Notes under the pieces: model-generated
Seen by the model: the letters and a program-made list of their open reading frames with translations, nothing else
What the model was told of the DNA's origin: nothing
The model's database searches: none
Assembly (NCBI GenBank): GCA_016180575.1
Contig: JACPAY010000005.1
Span: 3,234-67,233, forward strand
DNA length: 64,000 bases
From: Candidatus Omnitrophota bacterium
GTDB taxonomy: Bacteria > Omnitrophota > Gorgyraeia > Aquiviventales > Aquiviventaceae
Direction: 5' to 3'
In this document: positions 1 to 62,389 of the stretch, piece after piece
How positions within the stretch are numbered: the first letter of the stretch is position 1
Layout: every line of letters starts with the position of its first letter
Translations under genes and position numbers: made by a program

Positions 1-553
1 GGCGATGGTCCACCCGCACTTCACCTTCAAGAAGAAGCTCTCGCACACCGCGGACTCGCAGGACCAGCGCCACCGGATGGTGCCGGCCTCGCGGCCGATC
101 CTGGCGTGCCACTTCGTCAGCGGGAAGCCCGACTACATCCTCCCGCCGCTCATCGCCGCACGAGCAGAGGCGGAGGCGGCCTATCGGGAGGCGATGGCGC
201 GCACCTGGACGGCGATCGACCGGCTCCTGAACCTCGGCGTGCCGCAGGAGCACGCCCTGTATCTTTTGCCCAACGCGTTCCCCATCCGGTTCGAGGAGTC
301 CGGCGACCTGCTGCACTTCCACCACAAGTGGGTCCAGCGGCTCTGCTACACCGCGCAGGAGGAGATCTGGAACGCCTGCCGCGACGAGGTGCTGCAGGTG
401 ACGGCGCGCTTCCCGCTCATCGGCCGCTACCTGCAGGCGCCCTGCTGGCCGAGGGCGCAGGCGCGCGTGCGCCCGGTCTGCCCGGAGGGCGACCGATTCT
501 GCGGGGTGGCGGTGTGGAAGCAACCTGTCGAAAACTATCGACGACTGATTTAA
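1..553 (+). CDS. ThyX-like (FAD-dependent thymidylate synthase family) protein, 5' end outside window
   Basis: ORF is open to the window start. QRHR and LLPNA..HFHHKWVQRLCYTAQEEI resemble the ThyX core, but the serines of RHRxxSxxxxSxRY are not conserved. C-terminus is Cys-rich. Confidence 0.5.
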   Translation, partial: AMVHPHFTFKKKLSHTADSQDQRHRMVPASRPILACHFVSGKPDYILPPLIAARAEAEAAYREAMARTWTAIDRLLNLGVPQEHALYLLPNAFPIRFEESGDLLHFHHKWVQRLCYTAQEEIWNACRDEVLQVTARFPLIGRYLQAPCWPRAQARVRPVCPEGDRFCGVAVWKQPVENYRRLI

Positions 554-578
554 AAAAAATGGGAGCCGGTCCCTTTTT
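552..578. repeat. Family A palindrome copy A1 (consensus AAAAATGGGACCGGTCCCATTTTT)
   Basis: aaaaaaaatgggagccggtccctttttg. Contains part of the upstream TAA stop and the hemQ ATG. Confidence 0.85.
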
Positions 579-2021: not shown

Positions 2022-2028
2022 GGTGACC

Positions 2029-2508: not shown

Positions 2509-2517
2509 GCCGCGGGA

Positions 2518-2838: not shown

Positions 2839-2841
2839 GGA

Positions 2842-2895
2842 CCGGTATCAGATACCTAATTTGACGATGCGAGGCAACATGGTATCTGATACCGG
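2842..2895. repeat. Family B inverted repeat copy B1 (arms CCGGTATCAGATACC / GGTATCTGATACCGG)
   Basis: Arms at 2842-2856 and 2881-2895. Each arm is itself a GGTATC-n-GATACC palindrome. Confidence 0.85.
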
Positions 2896-3730: not shown

Positions 3731-3745
3731 TTCCAGGAGGTTCCC

Positions 3746-4300
3746 ATGCGCGTGGTCATCGGGATCACCGGCGCCTCGGGCGCGGTCTTCGGGGTGGACT
3801 TCCTCCGGCGCTGCCCGGCGGAGGAGAAGTACCTCATCCTGACGAAGTGGGGCCGGTACGTCCTCAAGGAGGAAACCGGGCTCACCGAGCACCACCTGGC
3901 CGAGCACGTGAAGAAGAGCTTCTCCGATGAGGACCTCGCCGCACCCTTCTCGTCCGGCTCGACGCCGTTCGATGCGCTGGTCATCCTGCCCTGCTCGGTC
4001 TCGACGATGGCGAAGATCGCCTGCGGCCTGGCCGACACGCTGCTGACGCGCGCCGCGGCGGTCGCGCTCAAGGAGCGGCGCCGGCTCATCATCGGCCTGC
4101 GGGAGACGCCGCTCTCCACGATCCACCTGGAGCAGGCGGCCAAGCTGTCGCAGGCCGGGGCGATCGTGATGCCGATCGCGCCGCCGTTCTACCACCGGCC
4201 GCAGACCATCGATGAGCTGGTGGAGCAGTTCAACGCCAAGGTCCTCAGCCTCCTCGGGTTCGAGACCGCCCTCGCCTGGAAGCCCGAAGCCCTGGAATAA
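3746..4300 (+). CDS. ubiX: UbiX-type flavin prenyltransferase (MqnL-like)
   Basis: MRVVIGITGASGAVFG N-terminus and PCSVSTMAKIA motif. SD GGAGG upstream. Confidence 0.85.
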   Translation: MRVVIGITGASGAVFGVDFLRRCPAEEKYLILTKWGRYVLKEETGLTEHHLAEHVKKSFSDEDLAAPFSSGSTPFDALVILPCSVSTMAKIACGLADTLLTRAAAVALKERRRLIIGLRETPLSTIHLEQAAKLSQAGAIVMPIAPPFYHRPQTIDELVEQFNAKVLSLLGFETALAWKPEALE

Positions 4301-4320
4301 TAGGAACCGGTCCCATTTTT
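4298..4320. repeat. Family A palindrome copy A2
   Basis: taataggaaccggtcccattttt, between ubiX and the ubiD-like gene. Confidence 0.85.
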
Positions 4321-4325
4321 CCTCG

Positions 4326-7883: not shown

Positions 7884-8976
7884 GGCGCTCGAGGAAAAGG
7901 TGCTCACCGGGACCCGCCTCTCGCGGGAGGAGGGGCTGTGGCTCTGGCAGCGGGGCGACCTCCTGGAGCTGGGTCACCTCGCCAACCAGGTGCGCCGCCG
8001 GCTGCACCCGGAGCCTGTGGTGACGTTCGTCATCGACTCCAACCCCAACTACACCAACGTCTGCGTCACCGACTGCGTTTTCTGCGCCTTCTACCGCAAG
8101 CCCGGCAGCCGCGACGGCTATACCCTGACGGTGGAGCAGGTGATGGAGAAGGTCCAACGGGCGGCGGACCAGGGCGCGACGACGGTGCTGCTCCAGGGCG
8201 GCCACAACCCCCAGATCCCCCTCGACTACTACCTCGACCTCGTGCGCGAGACCCGCAGGCGGTTCCCCCGCATCACCCCGCACTTCTTCACCGCGTCGGA
8301 GGTCACCACGATGGCGCAGGTGGCGGGCCTCTCGGTCCGCGAGGTGCTCGAGCGCCTGAAGGAGGCGGGGCAGTTCACGCTGCCCGGCGGGGGCGCCGAG
8401 ATCCTCTCGGACCGCATCCGCCGGCGGTTGAGCCCGAAGAAGGGCGGGGCGGAGGCGTGGCTCTCGGTCCATCACGAGGCGCATCGCCTTGGCTTCAAGT
8501 CGACCGCCACGATGATGTTCGGCCACATCGAGGAGGACGAGGACATCCTGGAGCACCTCGAGCACGTCCGAGCGCTGCAGGATGAGACGGGCGGCTTCAC
8601 GGCGTTCGTGCCCTGGACGTTCAAGCCGGGCAACACCCCGCTTGAGCAGCGCATCGCGCAGCACGCGGGCCCCACGCGGTACCTGCGCATGGTCGCCTTC
8701 TCGCGGCTCTACCTCGACAACGTCCCCCACGTCCAGGCCACCTGGTTCTCCGAGGGCAAGAAGACCGGCCAGATCGCCCTCCACTTCGGGGCCGACGACT
8801 TCGGCGGCACGCTGTTCGAGGAGAACGTCCACGCGGCGACCGGCTTCGTCAACAAGACCGCTGTGGAGGAGATCGTGACGCTCATCCGGGAATCCGGCTT
8901 CATCCCGGCCCAGCGCACCACCCTCTACGAGGTCCTCCGCACGTTCGAGCCGGCCGCGGCGCCGGTGAGCGGATGA
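7864..8976 (+). CDS. mqnC: Radical SAM enzyme, cyclic dehypoxanthinyl futalosine synthase MqnC
   Basis: NPNYTNVCVTDCVFCAFYR, QGGHNP, QDETGGFTAF and FGADDFGGT motifs. Confidence 0.7.
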   Translation: MSIICSEALEEKVLTGTRLSREEGLWLWQRGDLLELGHLANQVRRRLHPEPVVTFVIDSNPNYTNVCVTDCVFCAFYRKPGSRDGYTLTVEQVMEKVQRAADQGATTVLLQGGHNPQIPLDYYLDLVRETRRRFPRITPHFFTASEVTTMAQVAGLSVREVLERLKEAGQFTLPGGGAEILSDRIRRRLSPKKGGAEAWLSVHHEAHRLGFKSTATMMFGHIEEDEDILEHLEHVRALQDETGGFTAFVPWTFKPGNTPLEQRIAQHAGPTRYLRMVAFSRLYLDNVPHVQATWFSEGKKTGQIALHFGADDFGGTLFEENVHAATGFVNKTAVEEIVTLIRESGFIPAQRTTLYEVLRTFEPAAAPVSG

Positions 8977-9974
8977 TCGGCATTGAGCTGGACTGGTCCG
9001 CCATCGTGGCGCGCTCGCTGGGCGGGCAGGGCTTCACGCGCGAGGAGGCGCGGGCGATCCTCGCGCTGCCCGACGACGAGATCCCGCTGCTCCTGGCGGC
9101 CGCGTTCGCCGTCCGGAAGGCGCACTTCGGCAAGCGCGTCAAGGTGTGCATCCTCCAGAACGCCCGCAGCGGGCTCTGCCCCGAGGACTGCCACTACTGC
9201 TCGCAGTCGTCGGTGTCGGAGGCGAAGATCGACAAGTACCCGCTGATGTCCGCGGAGCAGCTGGTGGACGGGGCGCGGCGGGCGGCCGCGGGCGGGGCGA
9301 GGCGCTACTGCATGGTGACGAGCGGGCGGGGCCCGGCCGATGAGGAGATCGAGCACTTCTGCGGGGTGACGCGCGCCATCAAGCAGGAGCTGCCGGACCT
9401 TGAGATCTGCGTGTGTCTCGGGCTGCTCTCCGAGGAGCAGGCAAGGCGCTTGAAGGCGGCGGGGGTGGGCTGGGTGAACCACAACCTCAATTCAAGCGAG
9501 CGGTTCTACTCCGAATTCTGCACCACCCACACCTATCAGGACCGCGTCGAGACGGTCCGCAATGTCCGCAAGGCCGGTCTCATGACCTGCAGCGGCGGCA
9601 TCGTCGGGATGGGCGAGACGGACGAGGACATCCTGGACCTCGCCTTCGCCTGCCGCGAGCTCGGCATGGATTCGATCCCGGTCAACTTCCTCCATCCCAT
9701 CCCGGGCACCCCAATGGAGGCCCATCAGTTCCTGACGCCGATGAAGTGCCTGAAGGTGCTCTGCCTCTTCCGCCTCCTGAACCCGTCGAGCGAGATCCGG
9801 GCGGCCGGGGGGCGGGAGGTGAACCTCCGCTCGCTGCAGCCGCTGGCGCTCTACGCCGCGAATTCCATCTTCGTGGAGGGCTACCTGACGACGCCGGGCC
9901 AGCAGGGCGAGGAGGCGCGGCGGATGATCGAGGATCTTGGCTTCGAAGTCGAACCGGCGGGGAGGGGCGGATGA
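8973..9974 (+). CDS. bioB: Biotin synthase (BioB-type radical SAM)
   Basis: CPEDCHYCSQS, VNHNLNSS, CSGGIVGMGE and IRAAGGRE (the 2Fe-2S Arg region). ATGA overlap with mqnC. Confidence 0.75.
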   Translation: MIGIELDWSAIVARSLGGQGFTREEARAILALPDDEIPLLLAAAFAVRKAHFGKRVKVCILQNARSGLCPEDCHYCSQSSVSEAKIDKYPLMSAEQLVDGARRAAAGGARRYCMVTSGRGPADEEIEHFCGVTRAIKQELPDLEICVCLGLLSEEQARRLKAAGVGWVNHNLNSSERFYSEFCTTHTYQDRVETVRNVRKAGLMTCSGGIVGMGETDEDILDLAFACRELGMDSIPVNFLHPIPGTPMEAHQFLTPMKCLKVLCLFRLLNPSSEIRAAGGREVNLRSLQPLALYAANSIFVEGYLTTPGQQGEEARRMIEDLGFEVEPAGRGG

Positions 9975-10516
9975 CGAGGCGATGGGTCGTGACGACGCTG
10001 GGGAAGGACCGCCCGGGGATCGTCGCGGGGGTCACGAAGATCCTCTACCGGCTTGGCTGCAACCTCGAGGACTCGGCGATGACGCGCCTGGCCGGGGAGT
10101 TCGCCATCATGCTCATCTTCTCGGCGCCGGCCAAGGCGGCCGAGGCCGCCCTGCGGAAGGCGTTCGCGCCGCTGGAGCGGGGGCTGTCGCTGACGGTCCA
10201 TCTGAAGCCGCTGACGAAAGCGGAGATCGCTTCGCCCCGAAAGCGGGGGCGGGCCTACGTGATCTCGGTCTACGGGGCGGACCATCCCGGCATCGTGTTC
10301 CGCATCACGGACTCGCTGGCGCGCGCCGGGGTCAACATCACCGACCTGCACACGCACCGCACCGCCGGGGACGGGGCGCCGCTCTACCTGCTCCTGCTGG
10401 AAGTGGAGACCCCGCCGCGGGTCAGCGCCGCCAGGCTTGAGCGGCGCCTGCACACCCTGGCCACGACGCTGCGTGTTGAAGTCAGCTTCCGCCCCGCAGA
10501 CGCCGCCGTCCTCTAA
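9971..10516 (+). CDS. Tandem ACT-domain protein (GcvR-like)
   Basis: Two DRPGIV/DHPGIV ACT motifs. ATGA overlap with bioB. Confidence 0.65.
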   Translation: MTRRWVVTTLGKDRPGIVAGVTKILYRLGCNLEDSAMTRLAGEFAIMLIFSAPAKAAEAALRKAFAPLERGLSLTVHLKPLTKAEIASPRKRGRAYVISVYGADHPGIVFRITDSLARAGVNITDLHTHRTAGDGAPLYLLLLEVETPPRVSAARLERRLHTLATTLRVEVSFRPADAAVL

Positions 10517-10576
10517 TCGGGGACAGCCACTAATTTCCCTATGGCAGACTCAAGGAAATCAGTGGCTGTCCCCGAT
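10515..10576. repeat. Family C inverted repeat copy C1 (arm AATCGGGGACAGCCACTAATTTCC)
   Basis: 24-nt arms with one mismatch and a 14-nt loop. Overlaps the ACT-gene stop and the def start. Confidence 0.9.
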
Positions 10577-11071
10577 TTTTCCATCCGGCGGTTTCCGGAC
10601 CCCCTCCTCAAGCAGCCGACGCGCCGCGTGGACCGCGTGGACGACCGCATCCGGGCGCTGATCGACGCGATGGTGCGGACGATGCGCCATCACCCCCGCT
10701 GCGTGGGCCTGGCAGCCCCCCAGGTCGGCCGCGGCCTGCGCATCGCGGTGATGGACGCCTCCCGGCACCCCAAGGCCGCGGCGAGCCTCGGCCTGCTCGT
10801 CCTCGTCAACCCGCAGATCCTGGAGCGCGAGGGCAGCCTGCTGCAGCGGGAAGGGTGTCTCTCCGTCCCGGACTTCACCGGCAACGTCCCGCGCGCGTCG
10901 CGCGTGCGCCTGGCAACCTGGGACCGGGCGGGCTCCGCGATGGAGCTTGAGCTGGAGGGGTTCGAGGCGGTCATCGCGCAGCACGAGGTGGACCATCTCG
11001 ACGGGACGCTGTTCCTGGACCGCGTCGCCAACCTCGCCACCGATGTCTTCAAGCGGAAAACCTACCTGTGA
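10541..11071 (+). CDS. def: Peptide deformylase
   Basis: GLAAPQVG, EGCLSVP and HEVDHLDG motifs. Both candidate starts (ATG 10541, GTG 10562) lie inside element C1. Confidence 0.85.
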   Translation: MADSRKSVAVPDFSIRRFPDPLLKQPTRRVDRVDDRIRALIDAMVRTMRHHPRCVGLAAPQVGRGLRIAVMDASRHPKAAASLGLLVLVNPQILEREGSLLQREGCLSVPDFTGNVPRASRVRLATWDRAGSAMELELEGFEAVIAQHEVDHLDGTLFLDRVANLATDVFKRKTYL

Positions 11072-11080
11072 AGAAGGCGT

Positions 11081-11164
11081 GTGAGTCACAAAGTCACAAG
11101 GTCACAAAGTCACACGTGTGACCTTGTGACCGCGTGGTAGTCTCCAGTGTGTGACCCTGCGACC
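11081..11164. repeat. Family D: inverted arrays of GTCACAA(R)/(Y)TTGTGAC 8-mers, copy D1
   Basis: Four forward units, then two plus two reverse units split by a 16-nt spacer. Lies between convergent def and mqnD. Confidence 0.85.
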
Positions 11165-11179
11165 GGCTGGTGGATGAGA

Positions 11180-12040
11180 TTAGTTCTTGAGCGGCTCGAT
11201 GACGGAGAGGCGGGGCGCTGCGGGGATCAGCCCGGCGCGGTGGGCCTGGTCGAAGAGGGTGCGCAGCGCCTCGCGGCAGGGTTTGGAGAGGCCCAGCGAC
11301 TCCTCGTTGACGTACATGCTGATGAACTGGCGGGCGCGGGCGGCGTCGGTCCCCCGGCCGTAGCGCATGGCGTAGGCCAGCGCCTCCTCCTGATGCGCGA
11401 AGGCGTAGAGGATGCTGTCCCGCAGGACGGTGGCCGCGCGGGACGCGGTCCGGCGCCCGAGCGCTTTCTTCACGACGTTGAGCCCGAGCGGCAGCGGCAG
11501 CCTGGTCCGCTGCTGCCACCAGATCCCGAGGTCGAGCACCGGCAGAAGCCCCGCGTCCCGGTAGGTGAGCTGCCACTCGTGGATCACGAGGCCCGCGTCG
11601 ACCTCGCCCCGCAGCACCGCCTCCGGCACCTGCTCGAACCGCATGGCGACCGGCACGCAGCCGGGCAGGGCGAGGCGCAGGACGAGGCACGCGGTCGTCT
11701 GGAGGCCTGGCACCGCGATGCGGCGGCCCTCCAGCTCCTGGGGGCTGCGCGGCGCCTTCGAGATCACCACCGGGCCGTAGCCCTGCCCGACGCTGGAGCC
11801 CACCGCGACGATCCAGTAGTCTTTGGCGAGGGCCGGATAGCTGGCGGCGGAGACCGCCGTCAGGTCCAGCTCGGCCTCCTGCGCGCGGTGGTTGAGCGCG
11901 TCGATGTCGGCGATGACGTGCTCGAACCGGAGGCCGTCCATCGGGATCGCGCCGGAGGCGATCGCGTAGAACATGAAGGCGTCGTCCATGTCCGGCGTGT
12001 GGCCGACGGTCAGGGCGCGCTCGGCGGTCCGGATCACCAT
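11180..12040 (-). CDS. mqnD: MqnA/MqnD family protein, probable 1,4-dihydroxy-6-naphthoate synthase
   Basis: VGHTPDMDDAFMFYAI N-terminus and periplasmic-binding-like fold of the VitK2_biosynth family. ATGGTGA overlap with the upstream reductase gene. Confidence 0.6.
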   Translation of the reverse strand: MVIRTAERALTVGHTPDMDDAFMFYAIASGAIPMDGLRFEHVIADIDALNHRAQEAELDLTAVSAASYPALAKDYWIVAVGSSVGQGYGPVVISKAPRSPQELEGRRIAVPGLQTTACLVLRLALPGCVPVAMRFEQVPEAVLRGEVDAGLVIHEWQLTYRDAGLLPVLDLGIWWQQRTRLPLPLGLNVVKKALGRRTASRAATVLRDSILYAFAHQEEALAYAMRYGRGTDAARARQFISMYVNEESLGLSKPCREALRTLFDQAHRAGLIPAAPRLSVIEPLKN

Positions 12041-12738
12041 TCCTCGTAATGGATCCTCTCGTTCGGGACGCCGAGGCCCTGCAGGTCCTTGTGGACCGCC
12101 TTGACGACCTCGAGCCACCCGCAGAGATAGATCTCCTTGTCGGAGACGTCGGTGATGTGCTTCTGGAACGTCTGCTGGATGTGCCCGACCTCGCCGTGCC
12201 ACTCCTTCGGCCGGCTCACCGTCGGGATGTAGCGGAAGTTGTGGCGGATCCCCGCCAGGGAGCGGAACTCCGACTCGTAGAGCAGCGAGTGCTCGTACCG
12301 CGTGCCGAACAGCAGCCAGATGTTCCGGGTGACGTTGCGGTGCAGGAGGTGCTTGACCATCGACCGGAAGGGGGCGACGCCGGTGCCGGTGGCCATGAAG
12401 ACCGGCTCGTAGTCGAGCGGCTCCTTGAGGAGGAAGTTGCCGTGCGGACCGGAGATCGAGACCGGATCGCCGGCCTTGAGCTTCCAGCAGTAGGTCGAGG
12501 CGGCGCCCCCCTCCACGTGCTGGATGCACAGCTCGACCGTCTGGGGCTCGTGGGGCGGGGAGGCGATCGAGTAGGCCCGCTTGACGACCTTCCCGCCCTG
12601 CGGGACGTTCAGGATGACGAACTGCCCCGCCTTGAACTCCATCGCCGGCGGCTCGAGGAGCTTCAGGCGGAAGCCCCTGACGTTGTACGAGAGGACATCG
12701 ACCCGCTCAACGGTCGCGCGGTAGAGGGTGGCTGGCAT
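12034..12738 (-). CDS. FNR-like FAD/NAD(P)-binding oxidoreductase (no Fe-S domain)
   Basis: RAYSIAS FAD motif and MATGTGVAPF NAD(P) motif, 234 aa. Confidence 0.7.
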   Translation of the reverse strand: MPATLYRATVERVDVLSYNVRGFRLKLLEPPAMEFKAGQFVILNVPQGGKVVKRAYSIASPPHEPQTVELCIQHVEGGAASTYCWKLKAGDPVSISGPHGNFLLKEPLDYEPVFMATGTGVAPFRSMVKHLLHRNVTRNIWLLFGTRYEHSLLYESEFRSLAGIRHNFRYIPTVSRPKEWHGEVGHIQQTFQKHITDVSDKEIYLCGWLEVVKAVHKDLQGLGVPNERIHYEEW

Positions 12739-12766
12739 CGTCGGCGGTATTGTATCAGGAAGCGCC

Positions 12767-12816
12767 GAAAAAGTACCAGGTACTTTCTCCGCTTTGAGAA
12801 GTACCCGGTACTTTTT
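12767..12816. repeat. Family F: two A-like palindromes (AAAAAGTACCnGGTACTTTTT)
   Basis: gaaaaagtaccaggtactttc and gagaagtacccggtacttttt, 29 nt apart start to start, in the divergent FNR-mqnD / mutY intergenic region. Confidence 0.75.
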
Positions 12817-12820
12817 GACC

Positions 12821-13976: not shown

Positions 13977-13995
13977 GCCGTCCCCGACGATGGCT

Positions 13996-14001
13996 TATAC
14001 T
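13996..14001 (+). promoter_or_regulatory. -10 box TATACT 8 nt before the otsA ATG (leaderless-type)
   Basis: tatact at 13996-14001; ATG at 14010. Confidence 0.4.
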
Positions 14002-14009
14002 GGATCATC

Positions 14010-18211: not shown

Positions 18212-18217
18212 GCGCCC

Positions 18218-24148: not shown

Positions 24149-24183
24149 GTATCAGATACCAAGCCCCGTTTGGTATCTGATAC
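24149..24183. repeat. Family B inverted repeat copy B2
   Basis: gtatcagatacc aagccccgttt ggtatctgatac, in a divergent intergenic region. Confidence 0.85.
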
Positions 24184-24194: not shown

Positions 24195-25892
24195 ATGGAC
24201 CGGCACGAGCAGCGCGTCGTTCGCTTTCTCTCCAAGCCCTCCGCCTATCCGCATCGCGCGCCCGCCGTGGCGCGGCGGGAGACGCACGTCTCGCACGTTT
24301 TCCTGGCCGGCCCGTTCGCCTATAAGCTCAAGAAGCCGGTGAAGTTTCCGTTCCTCGATGCCTCCACGCTGGCCAGGCGCCGGCGGTTCTGCGGGCTGGA
24401 GCTCTCGCTCAACCGCCGCCTGGCGCCGGCGGTCTACCTGGGCATGGTGCCGATTGTGGAGACGCCGGCGGGGCTGCGCCTCGGTCCCTCGACTCGGCCT
24501 TCGGCCTCGCTCGGGACGTCGCCCGGACGCGACGGGGCGGGGCTCCGCGGGCACGAACGGATCATCGAGTGGGTGGTGAAGATGCGCCGCCTGCCGGAGG
24601 AGCGGATGCTGGACCAGGTGGTCGCCCGCCGGCAGCTGACCAGGGGCGACATGCTCCGCATCGCGGACCGGCTCAGCCGGTTCTTCCGGCGCGCCGCGCG
24701 GGGCCCCGCCATCGCCCGCTACGGCGCCCCGGACCAGGTGGCCGCGCTGGTCCTGGGCAACCTGGACGAGTGCCGGCCGTTCGTCGGCCGACTCTTCTCG
24801 GAGTCCGACCACCTGTTCCTCAAGGCGGCCTACCGCCAGTACCTGGCGCTCCACGAGCCGCTGCTGGCGCGGCGCGCGCGCGAGGGCCGGATCATCGATG
24901 GCCACGGCGACCTGCGGTGCGAGAACATCTGCCTGCCTGCCGCGCCGAAACGAGGAATGAAGCGTGGCGCGGCGCAGGCAGGCCTGACCAGTCCGGTCAT
25001 CTTCGACTGCGTGGAGTTTCAGCCGGCGTTCCGGTGCGGGGACATGGCCAACGATTTCAGCTTCCTCGTCATGGACCTGGAATTCCGCGGACGAGCCGAC
25101 CTGGCCGACGCCCTGGTCGCCGGGTACCGGCGCCGCCTGGGCGATGCGACCCTCGCGCAGGTCCTCCCGTTCTACAAGTGCCACCGCAGCCTCGTGCGCG
25201 GCAAGGTGCGGGCCCTGGCGTGGTCCCAGCACCCGCGCACGGCGCGGGGCCGGCGCGTGCGCGCGCTCTCCCGCCGCCACTTCCAGCTTGCGGCGCGCTA
25301 TGCACGAGCCTTCGCCCCGCCGCGGCTCGTGGCGGTCGGCGGGCTGATCGGCACCGGCAAGAGCACGCTCGCCCGCGCGCTGGCCCAGGCGCTGGGGGCC
25401 TCCTGGCTGCGCACCGACGAGATCCGGCTGCGCGAGTTCGCGCGCGCCAAGCGGCGCGGGCAGGGCTTCGCCCAAGGCCTCTACGCCCCGCACATCTCGG
25501 AGCTGGTGTACCGGCGGCTGCTCCGGCGGGCCGAGACCCTGGTGCGCGAGGGGGGCTCGGTCATCTGCGACGGGACGTTTTCGAAGGCCGCGGGGAGGGC
25601 GGCGCTGCGCGAGATCGCCAGGCGGCACGGTGGTTCGTTTCACTTCTTCGAGTGCGTGGTCCCCCGCGCGGTGGCCCTGCGCCGGGTGGCCAGGCGCTAC
25701 GCCGCGCGCGCGGATCTTTCGGAGGCGCGGCCGGAGCACTACGACCGGCTGCGGGCCGGCTTTGAGCCCCGCCCTCGGCGGGGCTGGCCGCGCCGGGACT
25801 GGACCCGGCTCTCCGACAACCGCGCGCCCCAGGCGACCGCGGCGGCCGCGCTGGCGGCGCTGCGGCGCGCATGGTCTCAATTTGGCGGGTGA
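24195..25892 (+). CDS. Bifunctional APH-like kinase domain / P-loop (AAA_33-like) ATP-binding protein
   Basis: HGDLRCENI..FDCVEF kinase motif and C-terminal GLIGTGKSTLA Walker A. Contains in-frame hairpin insert H1. The last codons and the stop come from element E1. Confidence 0.7.
   Translation: MDRHEQRVVRFLSKPSAYPHRAPAVARRETHVSHVFLAGPFAYKLKKPVKFPFLDASTLARRRRFCGLELSLNRRLAPAVYLGMVPIVETPAGLRLGPSTRPSASLGTSPGRDGAGLRGHERIIEWVVKMRRLPEERMLDQVVARRQLTRGDMLRIADRLSRFFRRAARGPAIARYGAPDQVAALVLGNLDECRPFVGRLFSESDHLFLKAAYRQYLALHEPLLARRAREGRIIDGHGDLRCENICLPAAPKRGMKRGAAQAGLTSPVIFDCVEFQPAFRCGDMANDFSFLVMDLEFRGRADLADALVAGYRRRLGDATLAQVLPFYKCHRSLVRGKVRALAWSQHPRTARGRRVRALSRRHFQLAARYARAFAPPRLVAVGGLIGTGKSTLARALAQALGASWLRTDEIRLREFARAKRRGQGFAQGLYAPHISELVYRRLLRRAETLVREGGSVICDGTFSKAAGRAALREIARRHGGSFHFFECVVPRAVALRRVARRYAARADLSEARPEHYDRLRAGFEPRPRRGWPRRDWTRLSDNRAPQATAAAALAALRRAWSQFGG
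24932..24982 (+). repeat. Family H intragenic hairpin insert H1 (51 nt, in frame)
   Basis: cctgcctgccgcgcc-16 nt-ggcgcggcgcaggcagg inside the kinase-like ORF, translated LPAAPKRGMKRGAAQAG. Confidence 0.75.
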
Positions 25893-25980
25893 CGCGGAGC
25901 CGGGGGCCCCGCCGCCCGCCCGCAGCGCAGCGAGGACGGCCGGCGGGGTGGCACAGCGGCAGGCCCCGCCAAATTGAGAC
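25874..25980 (+). mobile_element. Family E MITE-like element copy E1 (16-nt TIR GTCTCAATTTGGCGGG, GC-rich ~75-nt core)
   Basis: TIRs at 25874-25889 and 25965-25980. The left TIR encodes SQFGG plus the stop of the kinase-like gene. Confidence 0.85.
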
Positions 25981-26024
25981 AGTACCGCGCCTGGCTGGCT
26001 CGGACGTGACTCCCCGGCCAGGTG

Positions 26025-26554: not shown

Positions 26555-26998
26555 TTGCTCCGCATCGACGGGCACAGCATGGCGCCGGTCCTAAAGGCCG
26601 GCGAGCTCGTCGTGGTCGAGGAGGGCGCGTACGCCTCCGCCGCACCCCGGCGGGGCGACGTGGTGGCGGCGCGCCCCGCGGCGCTGGGCGGCCGGGCGTG
26701 CGTCAAGCGCGTCGCCGGCCTCCCGCATGAGCGGGTGCGGGTCGGCGAGCGGGAGTGGCGGCTTGAGGAGGGGCAGTTCTTCCTCCTCGGCGACCGCGCG
26801 GAGGACAGCCTGGACTCCCGTGCCTTCGGCCCGGTCCCGCGCGAGGAGCTGCTCGGCCCGGTGCGCAAAATCGGGACCGGTTCCATTTTTCATCGCATCA
26901 GGCTGTTGGCGACGATGATGCGCGGGCGCGACAGCGGCGCCGCGGCGCGGGGCCGGGCGGCTTCCCCATTGTGTAACGAAAGCGGCCCTGGCATGTGA
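26555..26998 (+). CDS. sodX: S26-type NiSOD maturation protease SodX
   Basis: GHSMAPVL catalytic Ser motif and KRVAGLPHE. Needs the TTG start at 26555 to retain the Ser. The C-terminal tail reads through element A3. Confidence 0.65.
   Translation: MLRIDGHSMAPVLKAGELVVVEEGAYASAAPRRGDVVAARPAALGGRACVKRVAGLPHERVRVGEREWRLEEGQFFLLGDRAEDSLDSRAFGPVPREELLGPVRKIGTGSIFHRIRLLATMMRGRDSGAAARGRAASPLCNESGPGM
26867..26890. repeat. Family A palindrome copy A3 (inside the sodX 3' coding region)
   Basis: aaaatcgggaccggttccattttt, translated as KIGTGSIFH. Confidence 0.8.
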
Positions 26999-32085: not shown

Positions 32086-32505
32086 TTGCGGATGCCGTCC
32101 TTTCCCGTGTCGGCCAAGAAGCAGCTCGCCCTCGAGGCCGCAATGCGCCGGCTGGGCGTCGATGAGCGCGACCTGGAAGAGCGGTTCATCCGCTCGCGCG
32201 GCCCGGGCGGGCAGAATGTGAACAAGGTCTCGACCTGCGTCGTCCTGCGGCATCGCCCCAGCGGCCTTGAGGTGCGCTGCCAGCAGGAGCGCTCCCAGGC
32301 GCTGAATCGGTTTCTCGCGCGGCGGCTGCTGCTGGGCCGCCTGGAGGCCGAGCGGCTGGGACGGGAGAGCGCCGAGGCCCAGGCCGTCGCCAAGCTGCGC
32401 CGGCAGAAGCGCAAGCGGTCCAAGCGGGCGAAGGAGAAGGTGCTGGCCGCCAAGCGGCTCCGGGCGGAAAAGAAAGCGCTGCGCCGCCCTCCTTCGCTCG
32501 ACTGA
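32086..32505 (+). CDS. arfB: GGQ-motif peptidyl-tRNA hydrolase, ArfB-like ribosome rescue factor
   Basis: SRGPGGQNVNKVST motif, ~139 aa, Lys/Arg-rich C-terminal tail. Confidence 0.7.
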   Translation: MRMPSFPVSAKKQLALEAAMRRLGVDERDLEERFIRSRGPGGQNVNKVSTCVVLRHRPSGLEVRCQQERSQALNRFLARRLLLGRLEAERLGRESAEAQAVAKLRRQKRKRSKRAKEKVLAAKRLRAEKKALRRPPSLD

Positions 32506-32528
32506 ACAATGGGACCGGTTCTATTTTT
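32505..32528. repeat. Family A palindrome copy A4
   Basis: aacaatgggaccggttctattttt, between arfB-like and the PPIase gene. Confidence 0.85.
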
Positions 32529-32544
32529 CAAAAGGAGGCTGGAG

Positions 32545-34029: not shown

Positions 34030-34033
34030 CACA

Positions 34034-34120: not shown

Positions 34121-34351
<231 letters not shown>

Positions 34352-46357: not shown

Positions 46358-46385
46358 GAAAAAATAGGAACCGGTACCGTTTTTC
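46358..46385. repeat. Family A palindrome copy A5
   Basis: gaaaaaataggaaccggtaccgtttttc, in the marR / IMPase divergent region directly upstream of TACAAT. Confidence 0.8.
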
Positions 46386-47188: not shown

Positions 47189-48491
47189 GTTCGCCTTCCC
47201 GGACGGCTTCCTCTGGGGCAGCGCCACCTCCGCCCACCAGGTCGAGGGGGACAACGTCCACAGCGACTGGTGGGCGTGGGAGCAGGCCGGCCGCGTGAAG
47301 GAGCCCTCCGGGCTCGCCTGCGACCACTACCGGCGCTTCGCGCAGGATTTCGACCTCGCAGCGGAGCTGGGACACAACGCGCACCGCTTCTCGGTTGAGT
47401 GGAGCCGCCTCGAGCCCGCGGAGGGCCGGTGGGACGAGGCGGCGCTTGCGCACTACGTCGAGGTGGTGCGCGCGCTCCGCGCGCGGCGCCTGGAGCCGAT
47501 CGTGACGCTCCACCACTTCACCACCCCCCAATGGTTCGCCTTGCGGGGCGGATGGGTGCGGCCGGACTCGGTGGAGGCCTTCGCGCGGTATGTCCGCCGG
47601 GTCGCCGCGGCGCTGGGCGATTCGGTCCGGTACTGGGTCACCATCAACGAGCCGATGGTCTATGTCCGGATGCATTACATTCAGGGATTGGGCCCGCCCG
47701 GCGCCCGCGACCTCCCGCAGGCGCTCCGCGTCATCGAGCATCTCATCCGCGCCCACGCGGCCGCCTACCGCGTGCTGCACGGCGCGCGCCGCGGGCCAGG
47801 CCCGGCCCCGCAGGTCAGCGTCGCCCATCACGCCCCCGCCTTCGGGCCGTGCCGGCGGTGGTGGCCGCCGGACCGCTGGATGGCCGCGCGGACCGACCGC
47901 GTGTTCAACTGGGCGCTCCTCGAGGCGCTGACCGAGGGCCGGTGGGTCGTGCCCGGAGTGGGGAAGTGGCGCATCCCGGAGGCCGCAGCGACGCTCGACT
48001 ATGTCGGCGTGAACTTCTACGGGCGGCAGTTCATCCAGTGGGCCCCCGCGGCGGGCGCGTGGCCCGGCGCGAGCTGCGACCTGGGACACCATCCGCGGGA
48101 GGTCACCGAGCGCACCTCGTACGGCTGGGATGTGCACCCGGCCTCCTTCGTGCAGGTCCTCTCGCGCATCGGGCGGATGGGGCGGCCGATCCTCGTGACG
48201 GAAAACGGCACCTACATGCAGGACGACGCCAGGCGCTGGGACTTCATCCTGCGCCACGTGCAGGCGATGGCGCGCGCGTTCCAGCAGGGCGCGCGGATCA
48301 TCGGCTACTGCTACTGGTCGCTCCTCGACAACTTTGAGTGGGCGGATGGGTTCGGCCCGCGCTTCGGCCTGGCGGAGGTGGACTACGCGACCCAGCGGCG
48401 GACCATCCGAGACAGCGGCCGCCGGTACGCGGAGATCTGCCGCGCCAACCGCGTGGAAATCGGGGACATGGAAATCGGGGACAGCCACTAA
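47181..48491 (+). CDS. GH1 beta-glucosidase
   Basis: FLWGSATSAHQVEG, TINEP (acid/base) and VTENG (nucleophile) motifs. The last ~10 codons and the stop are encoded by element C3. Confidence 0.85.
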   Translation: MPEFAFPDGFLWGSATSAHQVEGDNVHSDWWAWEQAGRVKEPSGLACDHYRRFAQDFDLAAELGHNAHRFSVEWSRLEPAEGRWDEAALAHYVEVVRALRARRLEPIVTLHHFTTPQWFALRGGWVRPDSVEAFARYVRRVAAALGDSVRYWVTINEPMVYVRMHYIQGLGPPGARDLPQALRVIEHLIRAHAAAYRVLHGARRGPGPAPQVSVAHHAPAFGPCRRWWPPDRWMAARTDRVFNWALLEALTEGRWVVPGVGKWRIPEAAATLDYVGVNFYGRQFIQWAPAAGAWPGASCDLGHHPREVTERTSYGWDVHPASFVQVLSRIGRMGRPILVTENGTYMQDDARRWDFILRHVQAMARAFQQGARIIGYCYWSLLDNFEWADGFGPRFGLAEVDYATQRRTIRDSGRRYAEICRANRVEIGDMEIGDSH

Positions 48492-48544
48492 TTTGCGAAT
48501 GGGAACAATTGTGTCCAGGCTTAAATTAGTGGCTGTCCCCGATT
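48455..48544. repeat. Family C inverted repeat copy C3 with 15-nt tandem duplication of the left end
   Basis: ggaaatcggggacat/ggaaatcggggacagccactaattt ... aaattagtggctgtccccgatt. Confidence 0.85.
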
Positions 48545-48548
48545 GTTG

Positions 48549-49392
48549 ATGCGGGCGTTGGTGCTGGGGGCGACCGGGCATATCGGGCTGCCCCTGGGTG
48601 TTCCATGCCGCTGGCTACTATCCCCGGTTTCGAGAGCGGCGCAAGGAGGCCATCGAGCGGGGCCTCCGGTCCACGCGCCGTCTCCTCGAGCAGCTCCGGC
48701 GGATGGGCCCCGCGCGCATCGTCTTCACGAGCAGCGCAGCCACCATCCGGCGCGTGCCCGGGCGGCCGGCGACCGAAGCGGACGCCGAGCCCTGGCCGCC
48801 GGCCGAGTGGCGGCCGCTCTACGCGACGGTCAAACTCGCGATGGAGCACGAGGTGCTGGAGGCCTGCCGGGGCGGGCTGCCCGCCGTCGTGGTGAACCCC
48901 AGCCTCTGCGTCGGGGAGTACGACGCGCGGCCCTTCTCCGGCCGGGCCGTCCTGGCATTCGCCCGGCCCGGCATCCCGGTCTACGTGCGGCACACCTTCA
49001 ACGCGGTCTACACCGGCGACGTCGCCATTGGGCACCTCCGCGCGGCCGAGCGGGGGCGTCTCGGCGAGCGCTATCTCCTCGTCGGCCGCAACGTGACCCT
49101 GCGGGAGTTCGCAACGCTCGTCGCCCGGGCGGCCGACGTGTGCCCGCCGCGGTGGCGCGTCCCGTACGGCCTCGTGTGGGCCGCGGCCGTCTCGACGGAG
49201 GCCGCCGCCTGGCTGGCGCGCACCGAGCCGTTGCTGCCGCGGGGTGCTGTCCACTCGCTGCGGATGGGACAGCTGCTGGATGGGACGAAGGCGCTGCGGG
49301 AGCTCGCGCTGCCCCAGACGCCGCTTGAGGAAGCCATCCGGCGGGCGCTTGCGTGGTTTAAGTTGCTTCCTTCCGGTATCAGATACCGGTAA
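48549..49392 (+). pseudogene. NAD-dependent epimerase/dehydratase with internal deletion and frameshift
   Basis: MRALVLGATGHIG Rossmann start (frame of 48549) is joined after ~16 codons to VFHAAGYY... (frame of 48598). About 50 residues normally between these motifs are missing. Confidence 0.7.
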
Positions 49393-49427
49393 AATAAACG
49401 GGTTAGTAGGCCGGTATCTGATACCGG
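49373..49427. repeat. Family B inverted repeat copy B3
   Basis: ccggtatcagataccgg ... ccggtatctgataccgg. Encodes the last codons (GIRYR) and the stop of the epimerase pseudogene. Confidence 0.85.
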
Positions 49428-49441
49428 AACGGGAGGCGCTC

Positions 49442-50990: not shown

Positions 50991-51004
50991 GCGGCCAAGG
51001 TGCT

Positions 51005-51116
51005 GTCTCAATTTGGCGGGTCCTGCCGCGCCGCCACCCCGCCGGCTGTCCTCGGCCTCCTGGCCTGCGGGCAGGCGGCGGGGGCCTCGGCTCCGCGTCA
51101 CCCGCCAAATTGAGAC
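51005..51116 (-). mobile_element. Family E MITE-like element copy E2 (inverted relative to E1)
   Basis: TIRs at 51005-51020 and 51101-51116. The reverse complement of the core aligns with the E1 and E3 cores. Confidence 0.85.
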
Positions 51117-51220
51117 ACGACCGCGGCCAAACCGGGGTTGAACGCCGTGCGGGGCTCTGCTAAACTGAACATGTGAACTCGGTCGCGACTTTGGGTGCGG
51201 AACGGACAGGGAGGTGCGGG

Positions 51221-59002: not shown

Positions 59003-60775
59003 ATGACATCGCAGCCTGGGGACTCTCCAGCCCGCGTCGCGGCCTCGGAGCCGGCCGCTATCGAGTGGGAGCGCAAGCCGAAGACGATCGACGCCAACCT
59101 CAAGGACTACGACGCCGCCTACAAGGGCTTCGACTGGAAATCGGTCGAGCGGGAGTTCGACTGGTCGAAGACGGGGAAGGTGAACGTGGTCCATGAGGCG
59201 GTGGACCGCCACGCCGCCTCCCCGCGCAAGGACAAGCTCGCGCTCGCCTTCACCGACTTCGCGGGCCGGGATGAGCGCTGCACCTTCCAGGACCTCAAGC
59301 GGCTCACGAGCCGCTTCGCCCACGCGCTGCGGCAGCTCGGCGTGAAGAAGGGCGACCGCGTGGGGACGTTCCTGCCGCGCACGCCCGAACTCTACATCGC
59401 GATCCTCAGCATCAACCGCATCGGCGCCATCCCCGTGCCGCTCTTCGAAGCGTTCATGGAGCAGGCGGTCGAGGACCGGCTGGGGGACAGCGAGGCGGTC
59501 GCCTGCGTCACCTCGCCCGCCCTGAAGGGCCGCATCCCGCTCAAGAAGCTGCCGAAGCTCAAGCGGCTCATCCTCGTCGGCGCCTCCGGCGCGCTCGCCC
59601 CCAACGAGGCGAGCTACGAGCAGGCCACCGCCAACGCCCCGGATTGGGTGGAGCCGGAGTGGCTCACTGTTGACGACGGCCTCGTCATCCACTACACCTC
59701 AGGCTCCACGGGAAAGTCCAAGGGGGCGCTCCACCGCCAGTACGCGATGGTCGGCCACTACCAGACGAGCAAGTGGGCGCTCGACCTGCGGGATGACGAC
59801 GTGTACTGGTGCACGGCGGATCCTGGGTGGGTGACCGGCACCTCCTACGGCATCTACGGTCCCTGGACGCTGGGGATCTCGAGCGTCGTGATCGGCGGCC
59901 GCTTCGACCCGGACCGGTGGTACGAGACCATCCAGCGCTACAAGGTCACGATGTGGTACAGCGCGCCCACCGCCTACCGCATGCTCATGTCCGCGGGCGA
60001 GGCCATCCCGAAGAAGTACGACCTCAAGAGCCTGCGCCACATCTGCAGCGTCGGCGAGCCGCTCAATCCGGAGGCGCTGAAGTGGGTCAAGAAGATCACG
60101 GGCCTGGCGCCCCATGAGACCTGGTGGATGACCGAGACCGGCATGCAGCTCATCTGCAACTATCGGAGCAAAGATTTCCCCATCGGGTGCACGGGCAAGC
60201 CGTTCCCGGGCACCTACGCGACGGTGGTGAACGACCAGGGCAGGGAGCTGCCGCCGGGCGAGCTCGGCCACCTCGTCGTCAAGCCGGGCTGGCCGTCGAT
60301 GATGAAGGAGATCTGGCGAAACCCCGTCAAGTATCAGGAGTACTTCCGCATCCCCGGCTGGTATGTGAGCGGCGACAGCGCGTACCGGGACGAGCAGGGC
60401 TACCTCTGGTACCAGGGAAGGGCGGACGACGTCATCAAGACGGCGGGCGAGCGCGTGGGGCCGTTCGAGGTCGAAAGCGCCCTCGTCGCGCACCCGGCGG
60501 TGGCCGAGGCGGGGGTGATCGGCAAGCCCGACCCGGTGCGCGGGCACATCATCAAGGCCTTCGTCTCGCTGCGCAAGGGCCACCAGCCCTCGGAGCAGCT
60601 CAAGCAGGACATCGCCGACTTCGTGAAGAACAACCTTGCGGCCCACGCCGCCCCGCGCGAGATCGCGTTCGTGGACAAGGTGCCCAAGACCCGGTCGGGG
60701 AAGATCATGCGCCGCGTCCTGCGCGCCTGGGACCTCGGCCAGCCCGTCGGCGACATCTCGACGATGGAAGAATGA
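59003..60775 (+). CDS. acs: AMP-forming acetyl-CoA synthetase family ligase
   Basis: YTSGSTGKSKG AMP motif, WWMTETG, SGDSAYRDEQGY and PKTRSGKIMRR motifs. Confidence 0.8.
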   Translation: MTSQPGDSPARVAASEPAAIEWERKPKTIDANLKDYDAAYKGFDWKSVEREFDWSKTGKVNVVHEAVDRHAASPRKDKLALAFTDFAGRDERCTFQDLKRLTSRFAHALRQLGVKKGDRVGTFLPRTPELYIAILSINRIGAIPVPLFEAFMEQAVEDRLGDSEAVACVTSPALKGRIPLKKLPKLKRLILVGASGALAPNEASYEQATANAPDWVEPEWLTVDDGLVIHYTSGSTGKSKGALHRQYAMVGHYQTSKWALDLRDDDVYWCTADPGWVTGTSYGIYGPWTLGISSVVIGGRFDPDRWYETIQRYKVTMWYSAPTAYRMLMSAGEAIPKKYDLKSLRHICSVGEPLNPEALKWVKKITGLAPHETWWMTETGMQLICNYRSKDFPIGCTGKPFPGTYATVVNDQGRELPPGELGHLVVKPGWPSMMKEIWRNPVKYQEYFRIPGWYVSGDSAYRDEQGYLWYQGRADDVIKTAGERVGPFEVESALVAHPAVAEAGVIGKPDPVRGHIIKAFVSLRKGHQPSEQLKQDIADFVKNNLAAHAAPREIAFVDKVPKTRSGKIMRRVLRAWDLGQPVGDISTMEE

Positions 60776-60799
60776 AAAACGGGACCGGGTCCCTTTTTT
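60775..60799. repeat. Family A palindrome copy A7
   Basis: aaaaacgggaccgggtccctttttt, starting at the last base of the acs TGA stop. Confidence 0.85.
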
Positions 60800-60817
60800 C
60801 CACCGTTGGCCGATCAG

Positions 60818-60842
60818 AAAAAATGGACCCGGTCCCAATTTT
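60818..60842. repeat. Family A palindrome copy A8
   Basis: aaaaaatggacccggtcccaatttt, supplying the tlpA-like start codon. Confidence 0.85.
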
Positions 60843-61350
60843 GCTTTCGCTGCTTGTTCTCGCCGGCTGCGGCCAGCAGGGGATCGGCGCCGATTGGAAA
60901 CGCATCGAGCCCGGCGTCGCCGCGATCGACTTCGAGCTGCCGCAGCTCGACGGCCCGCCGGTGAAGCTGTCGGACTACCGGGGCCGCGTCGTCGTCATGG
61001 AATTCTGGGCGACCTGGTGCGGCCCCTGCCGGTTTTCACTTCCATCGCTTGAGGTCATCTACAAGCGGTACCGCGACCGAGGGATGACCGTCCTCTTGAT
61101 CAATGAGGGGGAAGAGGCCGAAGTGGCGCGGAAATGGGCGGAGAAGCGGTTCACGGCTCCTATCCTCCTGGACCGGGACCAGGCGGTCGGCGCGCGCTAC
61201 CGCGTGCGCGGCATCCCGCGGCTCTTCATCGTGGACCAGGCGGGGAACCTGGCGTATGCGCATGAAGGCTACGGCGGGGGGCTTGAGCGGAACCTCACGC
61301 TGATCCTCGATGAGTTCCTGGCGCCCCCCGCACCCGCCGCAGATGGCTGA
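60823..61350 (+). CDS. TlpA/ResA-like thioredoxin-fold lipoprotein
   Basis: Lipobox LAGC and WATWCGPC motif. The ATG and first ~7 codons lie inside element A8. Confidence 0.8.
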   Translation: MDPVPILLSLLVLAGCGQQGIGADWKRIEPGVAAIDFELPQLDGPPVKLSDYRGRVVVMEFWATWCGPCRFSLPSLEVIYKRYRDRGMTVLLINEGEEAEVARKWAEKRFTAPILLDRDQAVGARYRVRGIPRLFIVDQAGNLAYAHEGYGGGLERNLTLILDEFLAPPAPAADG

Positions 61351-62217: not shown

Positions 62218-62389
62218 TTAGAACCGGTTTCATAAATCCCCGCGGCCGCGCTGGGCCTAGCGGCGAGGCCCGCAAGGCGCGAGGAGCGTGGCGTACTCGC
62301 AGACGAGTACGCGAGCGACGAGCAACGCCGCGGGCCGACGCCGAGGCGCTCGCAACGCGGCTCGCGCGGATTTATGAAACCGGTTCTAG
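62218..62389. mobile_element. Family G MITE-like element (22-nt TIR TTAGAACCGGTTTCATAAATCC)
   Basis: TIRs at 62218-62239 and 62368-62389. The interior is a long imperfect palindrome centred on gcgtactcg-caga-cgagtacgc. Confidence 0.8.

Follow-up and report, generated by a model that had tools for sequence, protein, structure and literature searches.

The 64-kb window analyzed here (the whole stretch of 64,000 nt, from contig JACPAY010000005.1 of assembly GCA_016180575.1, deposited as a Candidatus Omnitrophota bacterium) is a gene-dense segment with a GC content of 69%, and many of its gene junctions are occupied by short hairpin repeats which overlap the start and stop codons of the neighbouring genes. 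The genes were called with a GC3-based model, and those adjacent to repeats were checked with Pfam. The identities read from the sequence in the original prediction held for ThyX, a chlorite-dismutase/HemQ-like protein, UbiA, UbiX, UbiD, an ACT-domain protein, def and an HhH-GPD protein, as well as for a Ni-SOD with an S26 protease, a GH1 protein, an epimerase, a TlpA-like protein and an SDR protein. The def homologues found were labelled Candidatus Rokubacteria, and on this basis the window was assigned to that group. Gaps free of elements had a median length of 30 nt, and a spacer was absent altogether from 17 of the 71 gene pairs.

Motif and repeat searches of the window yielded 21 short palindromic elements belonging to at least six families. 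Their density was one per 3 kb, they made up about one-third of the intergenic DNA, and they stood out because they are AT-richer than the surrounding sequence. The families were as follows.

Family A: 27 nt, GAAAAAATGGGACCGGTCCCATTTTTC; seven copies, plus a related AAGTACCNGGTACTT pair.
Family B: two inverted CCGGTATCWGATACC palindromes; three copies.
Family C: inverted doublet with 24-nt arms; three copies.
Octamer arrays: inverted GTCACAAG repeats; four copies.
Family E: GC-rich, about 115 to 125 nt, ends ...TGTCTCAATTTGGCGGG; two copies.
Family G: about 166 nt, ends GAACCGGTTTCATAAATCC; one copy.

The individual elements were located at the following positions (strand given where one was assigned), some of them being classed as hairpins made of paired repetitive extragenic palindromes (REPs; the pairs, REPINs), as carrying terminal inverted repeats (TIRs) or as miniature inverted-repeat transposable elements (MITEs).

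A1, 552..578, plus strand: 27-nt A-run/GGGAGCCGGTCCC/T-run palindrome between ThyX and the hemQ-like gene.
B1, 2842..2895, plus strand: two inverted CCGGTATCWGATACC palindromes at the ubiA start.
A2, 4295..4321, plus strand: UbiX/UbiD junction.
C1, 10515..10577, plus strand: REPIN/TIR-type hairpin between the ACT gene and def.
Octamer array, 11077..11163: inverted GTCACAAG hairpin between def and the convergent MqnA-like gene.
Palindrome pair AAGTACCNGGTACTT, 12766..12818: upstream of the HhH-GPD (mutY-like) gene.
Other octamer arrays: 22071-22128, 56991-57090 and 62149-62207.
B2, 24149..24183: short B-type hairpin in a divergent spacer, without a terminal codon.
E1, 25874..25986, plus strand: MITE of about 113 nt, four codons before the AAA_33 stop.
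A3, 26866..26891, plus strand: in frame at the 3' end of sodX.
C2, 29991..30053, plus strand: perfect 24-nt arms, 3 nt after the stop of the YtxH-like gene.
A4, 32504..32530, plus strand: junction of the RF-1-domain (ArfB-like) gene and the cyclophilin gene.
A5, 46358..46385: divergent MarR/IMPase spacer, without a terminal codon.
C3, 48473-48544, or 48458..48544 with a 15-nt partial duplicate of the left arm, plus strand: end of the GH1 gene.
B3, 49371..49429, plus strand: epimerase tail and stop.
E2, 50999..51123: 8 nt after the DsbD stop, termini unaffected.
A6, 60774..60800, plus strand: stop of the AMP-binding gene.
A7 (A8 in the original prediction), 60816..60843, plus strand: tlpA-like start.
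G, 62219..62388, minus strand: MITE of about 166 nt at the SDR stop.

Not counting the ill-defined left boundary of the second octamer array, 13 terminal codons of neighbouring genes were found within 11 elements; A3 additionally lay in frame inside a gene. Nine stop codons were situated inside elements or overlapped them. The octamer arrays, E2, A5, B2 and C2 had no effect on gene termini.

The original prediction had stated that the elements insert precisely at gene ends. When the distances between elements and codons were tested statistically within the window, they were non-random: 14 of 20 elements lay no more than 3 nt from a gene end, as against 13 to 18% expected (P = 7e-9 to 7e-7). 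The value of 13% was obtained with uniform insertion points over the intergenic DNA outside the elements, and about 18% resulted when the two largest gaps were left out or when the element-holding gaps were taken alone (18.5%, P ~7e-7); this null is a rough one, resting on our own gene calls and element boundaries. The bias was mainly towards the stop codon of the upstream gene, so that the residual spacer lay on the downstream side. Closeness beyond chance was therefore evident, and precision of the target itself was seen only for G, where the TA inside a TAA stop is duplicated, and arguably for C1, whose junction follows the T of a stop codon. It is most improbable that crowding alone produced this pattern, i.e. 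that elements touch gene ends only because the spacers are tiny, with neither targeting nor selection for codon supply. The short gaps of the window noted above and the spacers of 0 to 31 nt in element-free relatives agree with crowding, but the elements sit at one end even within the gaps that hold them, element-free gaps of 50 to 112 nt are present in the window and were left unused, and the TA duplication inside the stop codon at G is a real target choice.

For four regions of the window, syntenic contigs of relatives were obtained (loci numbered with the prefix L), the gene order being common to both. The relatives share only 70 to 88% protein identity with the window, and start codons were assigned from sequence only, through homology and the absence of alternatives. 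The ACT/def junction illustrates the comparison. C1 is an inverted repeat of two 24-nt arms (AATCGGGGACAGCCACTAATTTCC ... GGAAATCAGTGGCTGTCCCCGATT) with 96% complementarity and a 15-nt loop, the loops of the three C doublets in the window ranging from 15 to 24 nt, and its predicted RNA fold has a free energy of -40 kcal/mol (z = -9 versus shuffled sequences). The TAA stop of the ACT gene occupies 10514-10516 and takes its AA, two of three bases, from C1. Both candidate def starts lie in the element, ATG 10541 in the loop and GTG 10562 in the 3' arm, and C1 also carries a Shine-Dalgarno (SD)-like AAGGAAAT. The def product comprises 169 amino acids in one gene call and 176 when counted from the first ATG. 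In the element-free locus L005 the same junction reads ...GTC CTC TGA CCGG ATG CAG GTC CTG CCC GTC CGG..., with a spacer of 4 nt; the N-terminus of Rokubacteria def is M-x-x-L-P-I-R-R-F, as compared with M(ADSRKSV)AVPDFSIRRF in the window. The ACT stop thus reads as a hybrid of the native T and the AA of C1, and the first def codons read as C1 sequence, which bears out the prediction that C1 holds this stop and both possible def starts. The ACT tail AAVL was considered as a displaced def N-terminus (MAVL), but this idea was dropped because the tail is identical in L005. Two further relatives, L001 and L002, possess other, unrelated hairpin elements at this junction; the loop of the L001 element again has an in-frame ATG, and the position of the ancestral ATG is occupied by ATC.

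At the GH1/epimerase junction, C3 together with the 15-nt arm duplicate encodes the predicted beta-glucosidase tail EIGDMEIGDSH and the TAA stop, (E)IGDSH being derived from C3 and EIGDM from the partial duplicate. The window protein ends with ...NRVEIGDMEIGDSH, and its orthologues end with ...CRTNRVAL or other short tails. In L040 the GH1 stop abuts the epimerase start (TGAATG), and in the window the epimerase ATG (48550) survives 5 nt downstream of C3. C2 has an orthologous copy at the same site in L123, and an ArfB-like gene in L124 takes its tail KLGTATDF and its stop from a C-type element. The supply of termini by repeats is therefore not confined to the genome of the window. The MAG (metagenome-assembled genome) from which L124 and L006 originate, CAYNXT01, is labelled 'Planctomycetales'; its gene order is that of Rokubacteria, and it may be mislabelled.

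Target duplications were seen in the two MITE-like families. E1 is inserted four codons before the stop of the AAA_33 gene and encodes SQFGG plus a TGA, as predicted. The empty site in L123 reads ...CGG CGC GCC TGG CTG GCT CGG ACG TGA, and the window reads ...CGG CGC GCA TGG, then E1, then CGCGCC TGG CTG GCT CGG ACG TGA. E1 is accordingly bordered by an 8- to 9-bp target duplication, CGCGC[A/C]TGG, and the native tail LART with its stop persists as a relic downstream at about 25996-26010. E2 is flanked by the duplication GCGGCCAA. With TIRs of about 20 nt (...TGTCTCAATTTGGCGGG), a target duplication, an empty site in L123 and no transposase gene of their own, the E elements correspond to MITEs. 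Some bacterial MITEs, e.g. the Correia element of Neisseria, duplicate TA. G has TIRs matching at 19 of 19 positions (GAACCGGTTTCATAAATCC), TA on both sides, a length of about 166 nt, a long internal hairpin and no open reading frame (ORF). The SDR stop TAG is formed by the flanking TA and the first G of the TIR, as the prediction that G supplies this stop implied, and precise excision of G would, according to the sequence, restore TAA. From these features E and G appear to behave as MITEs. A single copy of G is present in the window, and a Logan contig of the same strain which breaks inside the TIR hints at multiple copies; a lookup with the SDR protein retrieved only the same strain with G, and no empty G site was found. 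Within the terminal repeat of G (62221-62239), GAACCGGTT is similar to the core of the A family (GGAACCGGTCCC, GGGACCGGTTCT), and it is possible that A units and MITE ends are related.

The A family affected both ends of genes. The candidate starts of the hemQ-like gene, ATG 559 and TTG 577, both lie within A1, and one of them must be used because a long N-terminal region (..T..QRQ.......ARQ..) is preserved in the orthologues and likewise found in the window. The original prediction was right on this point, but not in attributing part of the ThyX TAA to A1: the stop overlaps the element by 2 nt, relatives likewise have TAA, and the codon is thus ancestral rather than donated. At A2 the UbiX stop TAA (4298-4300) is located in the A-rich arm and the UbiD ATG 4 nt downstream of the element, with the UbiX and UbiD termini the same as in relatives. 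The predicted extension of sodX by A3 was confirmed by orthologue comparison as a replacement of the native tail: sodX orthologues of 99 to 128 amino acids end with GPVRLRLWPW..., and the window ORF continues for 42 residues beyond GPVR, to position 26998. A4 shares 2 nt with the TGA of the RF-1-domain (ArfB-like) gene. The overlap between A6 and the TGA of the AMP-binding gene is likewise 2 nt, and A6 and A7 together fold into a hairpin of -34 kcal/mol. A7 holds ATG 60823 of the tlpA-like gene and the codons MDPVPIL of its lipoprotein signal peptide, matching the predicted ATG with about seven codons; TlpA-like orthologues are lipoproteins, and the signal peptide MDPVPILLSLLVLAGC can be started only at ATG 60823 or TTG 60841, both of which are in A7.

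B1 holds the only available ubiA starts (ATG 2879 or 2867), as had been predicted for ubiA/mqnP, and encodes MVSDTG. Window UbiA begins with MVSDTGRRLKTY, read from the B arm, whereas the element-free locus L121 has MTIALTDDRLKTY after a 31-nt spacer. B3 encodes the end of the epimerase and its TAA: the window protein terminates in ...AWFKLLPSGIRYR (...SGIRYR), and the orthologues in AWFKAHGYL. That gene (48550-49392) keeps its first 14 codons, after which about 50 codons are gone and the frame is shifted; the predicted GIRYR plus stop was confirmed. The deletion in the epimerase gene adjoins the insertion of C3 and may be connected with it.

At all orthologous junctions that were readable, the sequence of the relative departed from that of the window exactly at the start of the element, in line with the claim that the elements rewrite gene termini. 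N-termini were rewritten in def, the hemQ-like gene, ubiA and the tlpA-like gene and C-termini in the GH1, epimerase and AAA_33 genes and sodX, and the stop codons of the ACT-domain and SDR genes were changed. An annotation artefact, in which long ORFs stay open at 69% GC and the true ends lie outside the elements, accounts for one predicted case. An element 'E3' was said to extend the mutY-like protein; it matches neither of the two E elements and was taken as the palindrome pair in front of the sole HhH-GPD gene. There the reading frame is free of stops from 12728 on, but the N-terminus that is conserved, MT(R/H)..., corresponds to ATG 12821, 2 nt past the palindromes. The in-frame ATG in A4 is a similar instance, as the cyclophilin start with a strong SD sequence follows 14 nt downstream, and def has two candidate starts. 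It is nevertheless highly unlikely that artefacts explain most overlaps, since the nine stops in or overlapping elements leave no choice of position, the stretch from the element to the conserved N-terminal residues of def, hemQ, ubiA and tlpA offers no start codon, and the tails of orthologues diverge exactly at the element boundary. Apart from the mutY-like extension and the donation of the ThyX TAA, the original prediction was mostly correct.

The C arm was also found in other genomes. Its arm starts with GGGGACAG, which fits the motif GGGGWSAS, and carries neither a GTAG nor a CGTC tag. An 18-mer from the arm, GGGGACAGCCACTAATTT, was found at 34 loci in a search of one genome per species, in MAGs labelled Desulfobacteraceae, Syntrophobacteria, Omnitrophota, Coprothermobacterota, Thermodesulfobacteriota and others. 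Because about 17 matches are expected by chance for a random 18-mer, a few isolated matches may be noise; nearly all of the matches found share the 5' extension AAT(T/C), and many are inverted doublets. Doublets related to those of the window were present in L123, L124 and numerous further MAGs. In two loci a gene for a Y1 transposase is located between inverted arrays of C arms, namely L016 (gene 997-1716, array region 900-2040) and L019 (gene 6609-7313, array region 6480-7630). Both proteins belong to Pfam Y1_Tnp, and their best NCBIfam match was REP_Tyr_transpos with 69 to 73 bits, below the cut-off of 80 bits. A tblastn search with the L016 transposase gave no match in the 64-kb window or in the Rokubacteria loci. 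Short repeated arm units, often arranged as inverted doublets with a spacer, are the hallmark of REPs and REPINs; the terminal tag is GTAG or CGTC in REPs and GGGGWSAS in TIRs of the TIRYT type. From its sequence C is best described as a REP/REPIN-like doublet, and since GGGGWSAS is present and GTAG and CGTC are absent, it matches the TIR/TIRYT variant and not the classical GTAG REPs. A literature search with the C-arm sequence yielded only chance matches in papers on eukaryotes.

The outer end of the C arm is partly duplicated in tandem at several places. After C2 there are four tandem copies of an 11-nt unit from the element end (CCCGATTGTTT, about 4x, 30046-30095), GAAATCGGGGACA occurs twice before C3 (48458-48487), and repeats of CCCGATCTC are found in L019 (7430-7520). 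Such duplicates may mark a point of cleavage or joining by the transposase.

Exact copies of the A, B, E, G and octamer motifs were almost lacking in 178 kb of related loci, the exceptions being B in L120 and, for the C family, L123 and L124. The families therefore appear lineage-specific. One and the same junction (ACT/def, GH1/epimerase, ubiA) holds different elements or none across the relatives. This bears on the view that the elements are conserved cis signals, such as hairpins for mRNA 3' ends or terminators, structures for re-initiation or operator palindromes (B: GGTATCNGATACC), whose overlap with gene ends would follow from a compact genome and signals that need gene boundaries. The majority of the elements do lie just after a stop codon, and the doublets form very stable predicted hairpins (C1, -40 kcal/mol; A6+A7, -34 kcal/mol; B1, -28 kcal/mol). 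At the ubiA junction of the distant orthologues L120 and P0140, B-type arms encoding VSD(T/I) are conserved with differing loops. The palindrome upstream of the HhH-GPD gene (12797-12818) is orthologous in L002 (about 3280-3301), with a compensatory change from a G:C to an A:T pair (GTACC..GGTAC versus GTGCC..GGCAC), which suggests from sequence comparison that it is maintained, and C2 is kept at its site in L123. A stable structure directly downstream of stop codons has been described as controlling re-initiation (PMC7518266). Against conserved signals stand the unrelated or missing elements at the same junction in different relatives, the target duplications of E and G with an empty site, the C arms beside transposase genes, and near-identical copies at functionally unrelated loci. 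Single A units, moreover, fold weakly (-3 to -11 kcal/mol) and do not qualify as terminators. An intrinsic terminator was defined as a GC-rich stem, 5 bp or longer, which has a loop of 3 to 8 nt and is followed by a U-run, downstream of a gene; A units mostly have a 4-bp GC stem with -3 to -7 kcal/mol (A6, -11 kcal/mol), several of them lie between co-oriented genes a few nucleotides from the following start, and a scan of 1-20000, which spans A1 and A2, called no A unit. Conserved cis signals are hence an unlikely explanation of the pattern as a whole; as function and mobility are compatible, this view partly overlaps the one preferred here.

The preferred explanation, to which a probability of about 0.75 was assigned, is that several unrelated families of hairpin repeats without coding capacity occupy this gene-dense segment and rewrite the gene ends. 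With native spacers of 0 to 31 nt, a new copy would hit or adjoin a stop codon, a ribosome-binding site (RBS) or the first or last codons of a gene. The copies that persist would be those which spare the neighbouring genes by lying right after or inside the upstream stop and supplying a replacement codon. Replacement stops of this kind are T+AA (C1), TA+G (G) and T+GA (A4, A6), and replacement starts the in-frame ATG or GTG codons in A1, A7, B1 and C1, with up to about 12 native terminal codons exchanged for residues encoded by the element. Insertions in promoters or RBSs would be selected against, and the survivors would leave the downstream promoter and RBS intact. Selection rather than targeting probably lies behind most of the proximity to gene ends, and the A, B and C copies of the window presumably arrived through transposition. 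Where a hairpin extends from a stop codon to the following start, as in C1, B1 and A6+A7, it may couple or gate downstream translation, and control of translation initiation by the elements is plausible.

Several points weigh against this explanation. No transposase is encoded in the 64-kb window, and for A, B, C and the octamer arrays we infer that they are or were mobile in this lineage; copies of C, A and B are without target duplications, and no evidence of mobility was found for A, B and the octamer arrays. The cases of def, sodX and ubiA look like replacements of 10 to 55 nt and not like clean insertions. At the protein identities of the relatives, part of the difference may be ordinary divergence, and the manner of start assignment and the dependence of the chance model on our gene calls and element boundaries have to be taken into account. 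Both the B-type arms at the ubiA junction of L120 and P0140 and the compensatory changes in the HhH-GPD palindrome hint at a conserved function instead of selfish spread.

A more far-reaching version is doubtful. The hairpin repeats might be portable intercistronic modules, consisting of a stop-compatible 5' edge, a stable stem and, in the loop or 3' arm, an in-frame RBS-like motif with a start, which replace the native junction on landing and make downstream translation dependent on terminating ribosomes that unwind the stem. Separately, the near-invariance of the C arm (18 to 22 nt in many phyla) might reflect horizontal spread of one system similar to REP-associated tyrosine transposases (RAYTs), as opposed to their usual vertical inheritance.

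Other features of the window and of the related loci were also recorded. The octamer array at 11077-11163 leaves termini unaffected, and relatives have a 4-nt spacer between def and the MqnA-like gene (menaquinone biosynthesis, PF02621). Inverted arrays of 7- to 8-nt units were also seen in L053 (about 7291-7330), L121 (about 9612-9680) and L120 (about 7920-8060); the units vary by lineage (GTCACAAG, GTGGCCCA, CAAGCYR, TCAAAAN) and some are centred on CACGTG, with the architecture and the position at gene junctions remaining constant. The ubiA-ubiX and ThyX-hemQ junctions of relatives hold toxin-antitoxin, HEPN, HNH/AAA and restriction-modification genes (L120, 5941-7343; L121, 5911-8974 and 235-2536) and can thus be regarded as general insertion hot spots. 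The sole Rfam match in the whole window was a cyclic di-GMP riboswitch, and no Rfam family covered any element. This c-di-GMP-I-GGC aptamer (RF03167; 29234-29345, plus strand; 62.9 bits, above the gathering score) is located upstream of the YtxH-like gene in a gap of 325 nt that is otherwise element-free. The largest stretch without genes or elements was 34030-34575 (546 nt), which has several AT-rich islands and no tRNA or Rfam match; the tRNA scan of the window gave no match.

Repeats that provide gene ends are known from several systems. REP termini supply TAG stops, REPs occur within ORFs, and Di Nocera et al. found GGGGWSAS in 'TIR' repeats flanking RAYT-like 'TIRYT' genes (PMC3733652). 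REP/REPIN-RAYT systems have been treated by Nunvar 2010 (PMC2817692) and by Bertels & Rainey 2011 (PMC3116915). The review of Delihas lists in-frame fusions of repeats with the 3' or 5' ends of genes, REP2 of Neisseria with a promoter, RBS and ATG, and mycobacterial interspersed repetitive units (MIRUs) overlapping the flanking genes of operons (PMC3184786). The C family resembles the REP/REPIN-RAYT and TIR-TIRYT systems in its single arms or inverted doublets with variable spacer, in GGGGWSAS and in the inverted arrangement of arms around a Y1/HUH transposase gene (L016, L019), and it shares with GTAG REPs the position just downstream of coding regions and the element ends that give stop codons. 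It differs in having no GTAG or CGTC tag, in transposases that score under the NCBIfam RAYT cut-off, with none in the window, and in the occurrence of its arm of 18 to 22 nt in MAGs of many phyla, whereas REPIN-RAYT systems are described as mostly inherited vertically. Similarly, G with its perfect 19-nt TIRs, flanking TA and internal hairpin and E with its TIRs of about 20 nt and 8- to 9-bp duplication resemble bacterial MITEs, but neither shows a sequence relationship to named MITEs, a parent insertion sequence was not identified, and G sits inside a stop codon which it regenerates. As in the repeat-ORF fusions formed by Rickettsia palindromic elements (RPEs) and by MITEs of enterobacteria and Anabaena, element sequence of the window is translated within host proteins (PMC3184786); the window elements also give starts like REP2 and, in the manner of MIRUs, reach from a stop codon to the following start within operons. 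In contrast to such fusions, several unrelated families act within 64 kb, housekeeping genes (def, ubiA, hemQ-like) are affected, and native terminal codons are replaced and not merely extended.

A literature search found no paper linking Rokubacteria with REPs, MITEs or RAYTs. Because REPs, MITEs, REP2 and MIRUs have already been documented to supply gene ends, the window is a dense new example and not a new principle; what is new is the setting in an uncultured phylum, the density, and the number of unrelated families acting on housekeeping genes. The repeats probably fragment short-read assemblies. Logan contigs nearly identical to the window were only 1 to 1.5 kb long, and one of them (L127) breaks inside the terminal repeat of G. 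How such systems spread could be tested by means of the connection between the C arm and RAYT-like transposases in different phyla.

The consequence of repeat-supplied termini for annotation has been described for REPs and MITEs (PMC3733652, PMC3184786). In Rokubacteria and similar genomes of high GC content and gene density, starts and tails adjacent to repeats are not transferable from orthologues, and gene callers will disagree on them. With regard to evolution, housekeeping genes (def, ubiA, hemQ-like, Ni-SOD protease) can have their ends overwritten repeatedly by hairpin repeats, selfish or semi-domesticated, and still not be destroyed, and the same junctions are struck by differing element families in differing lineages.

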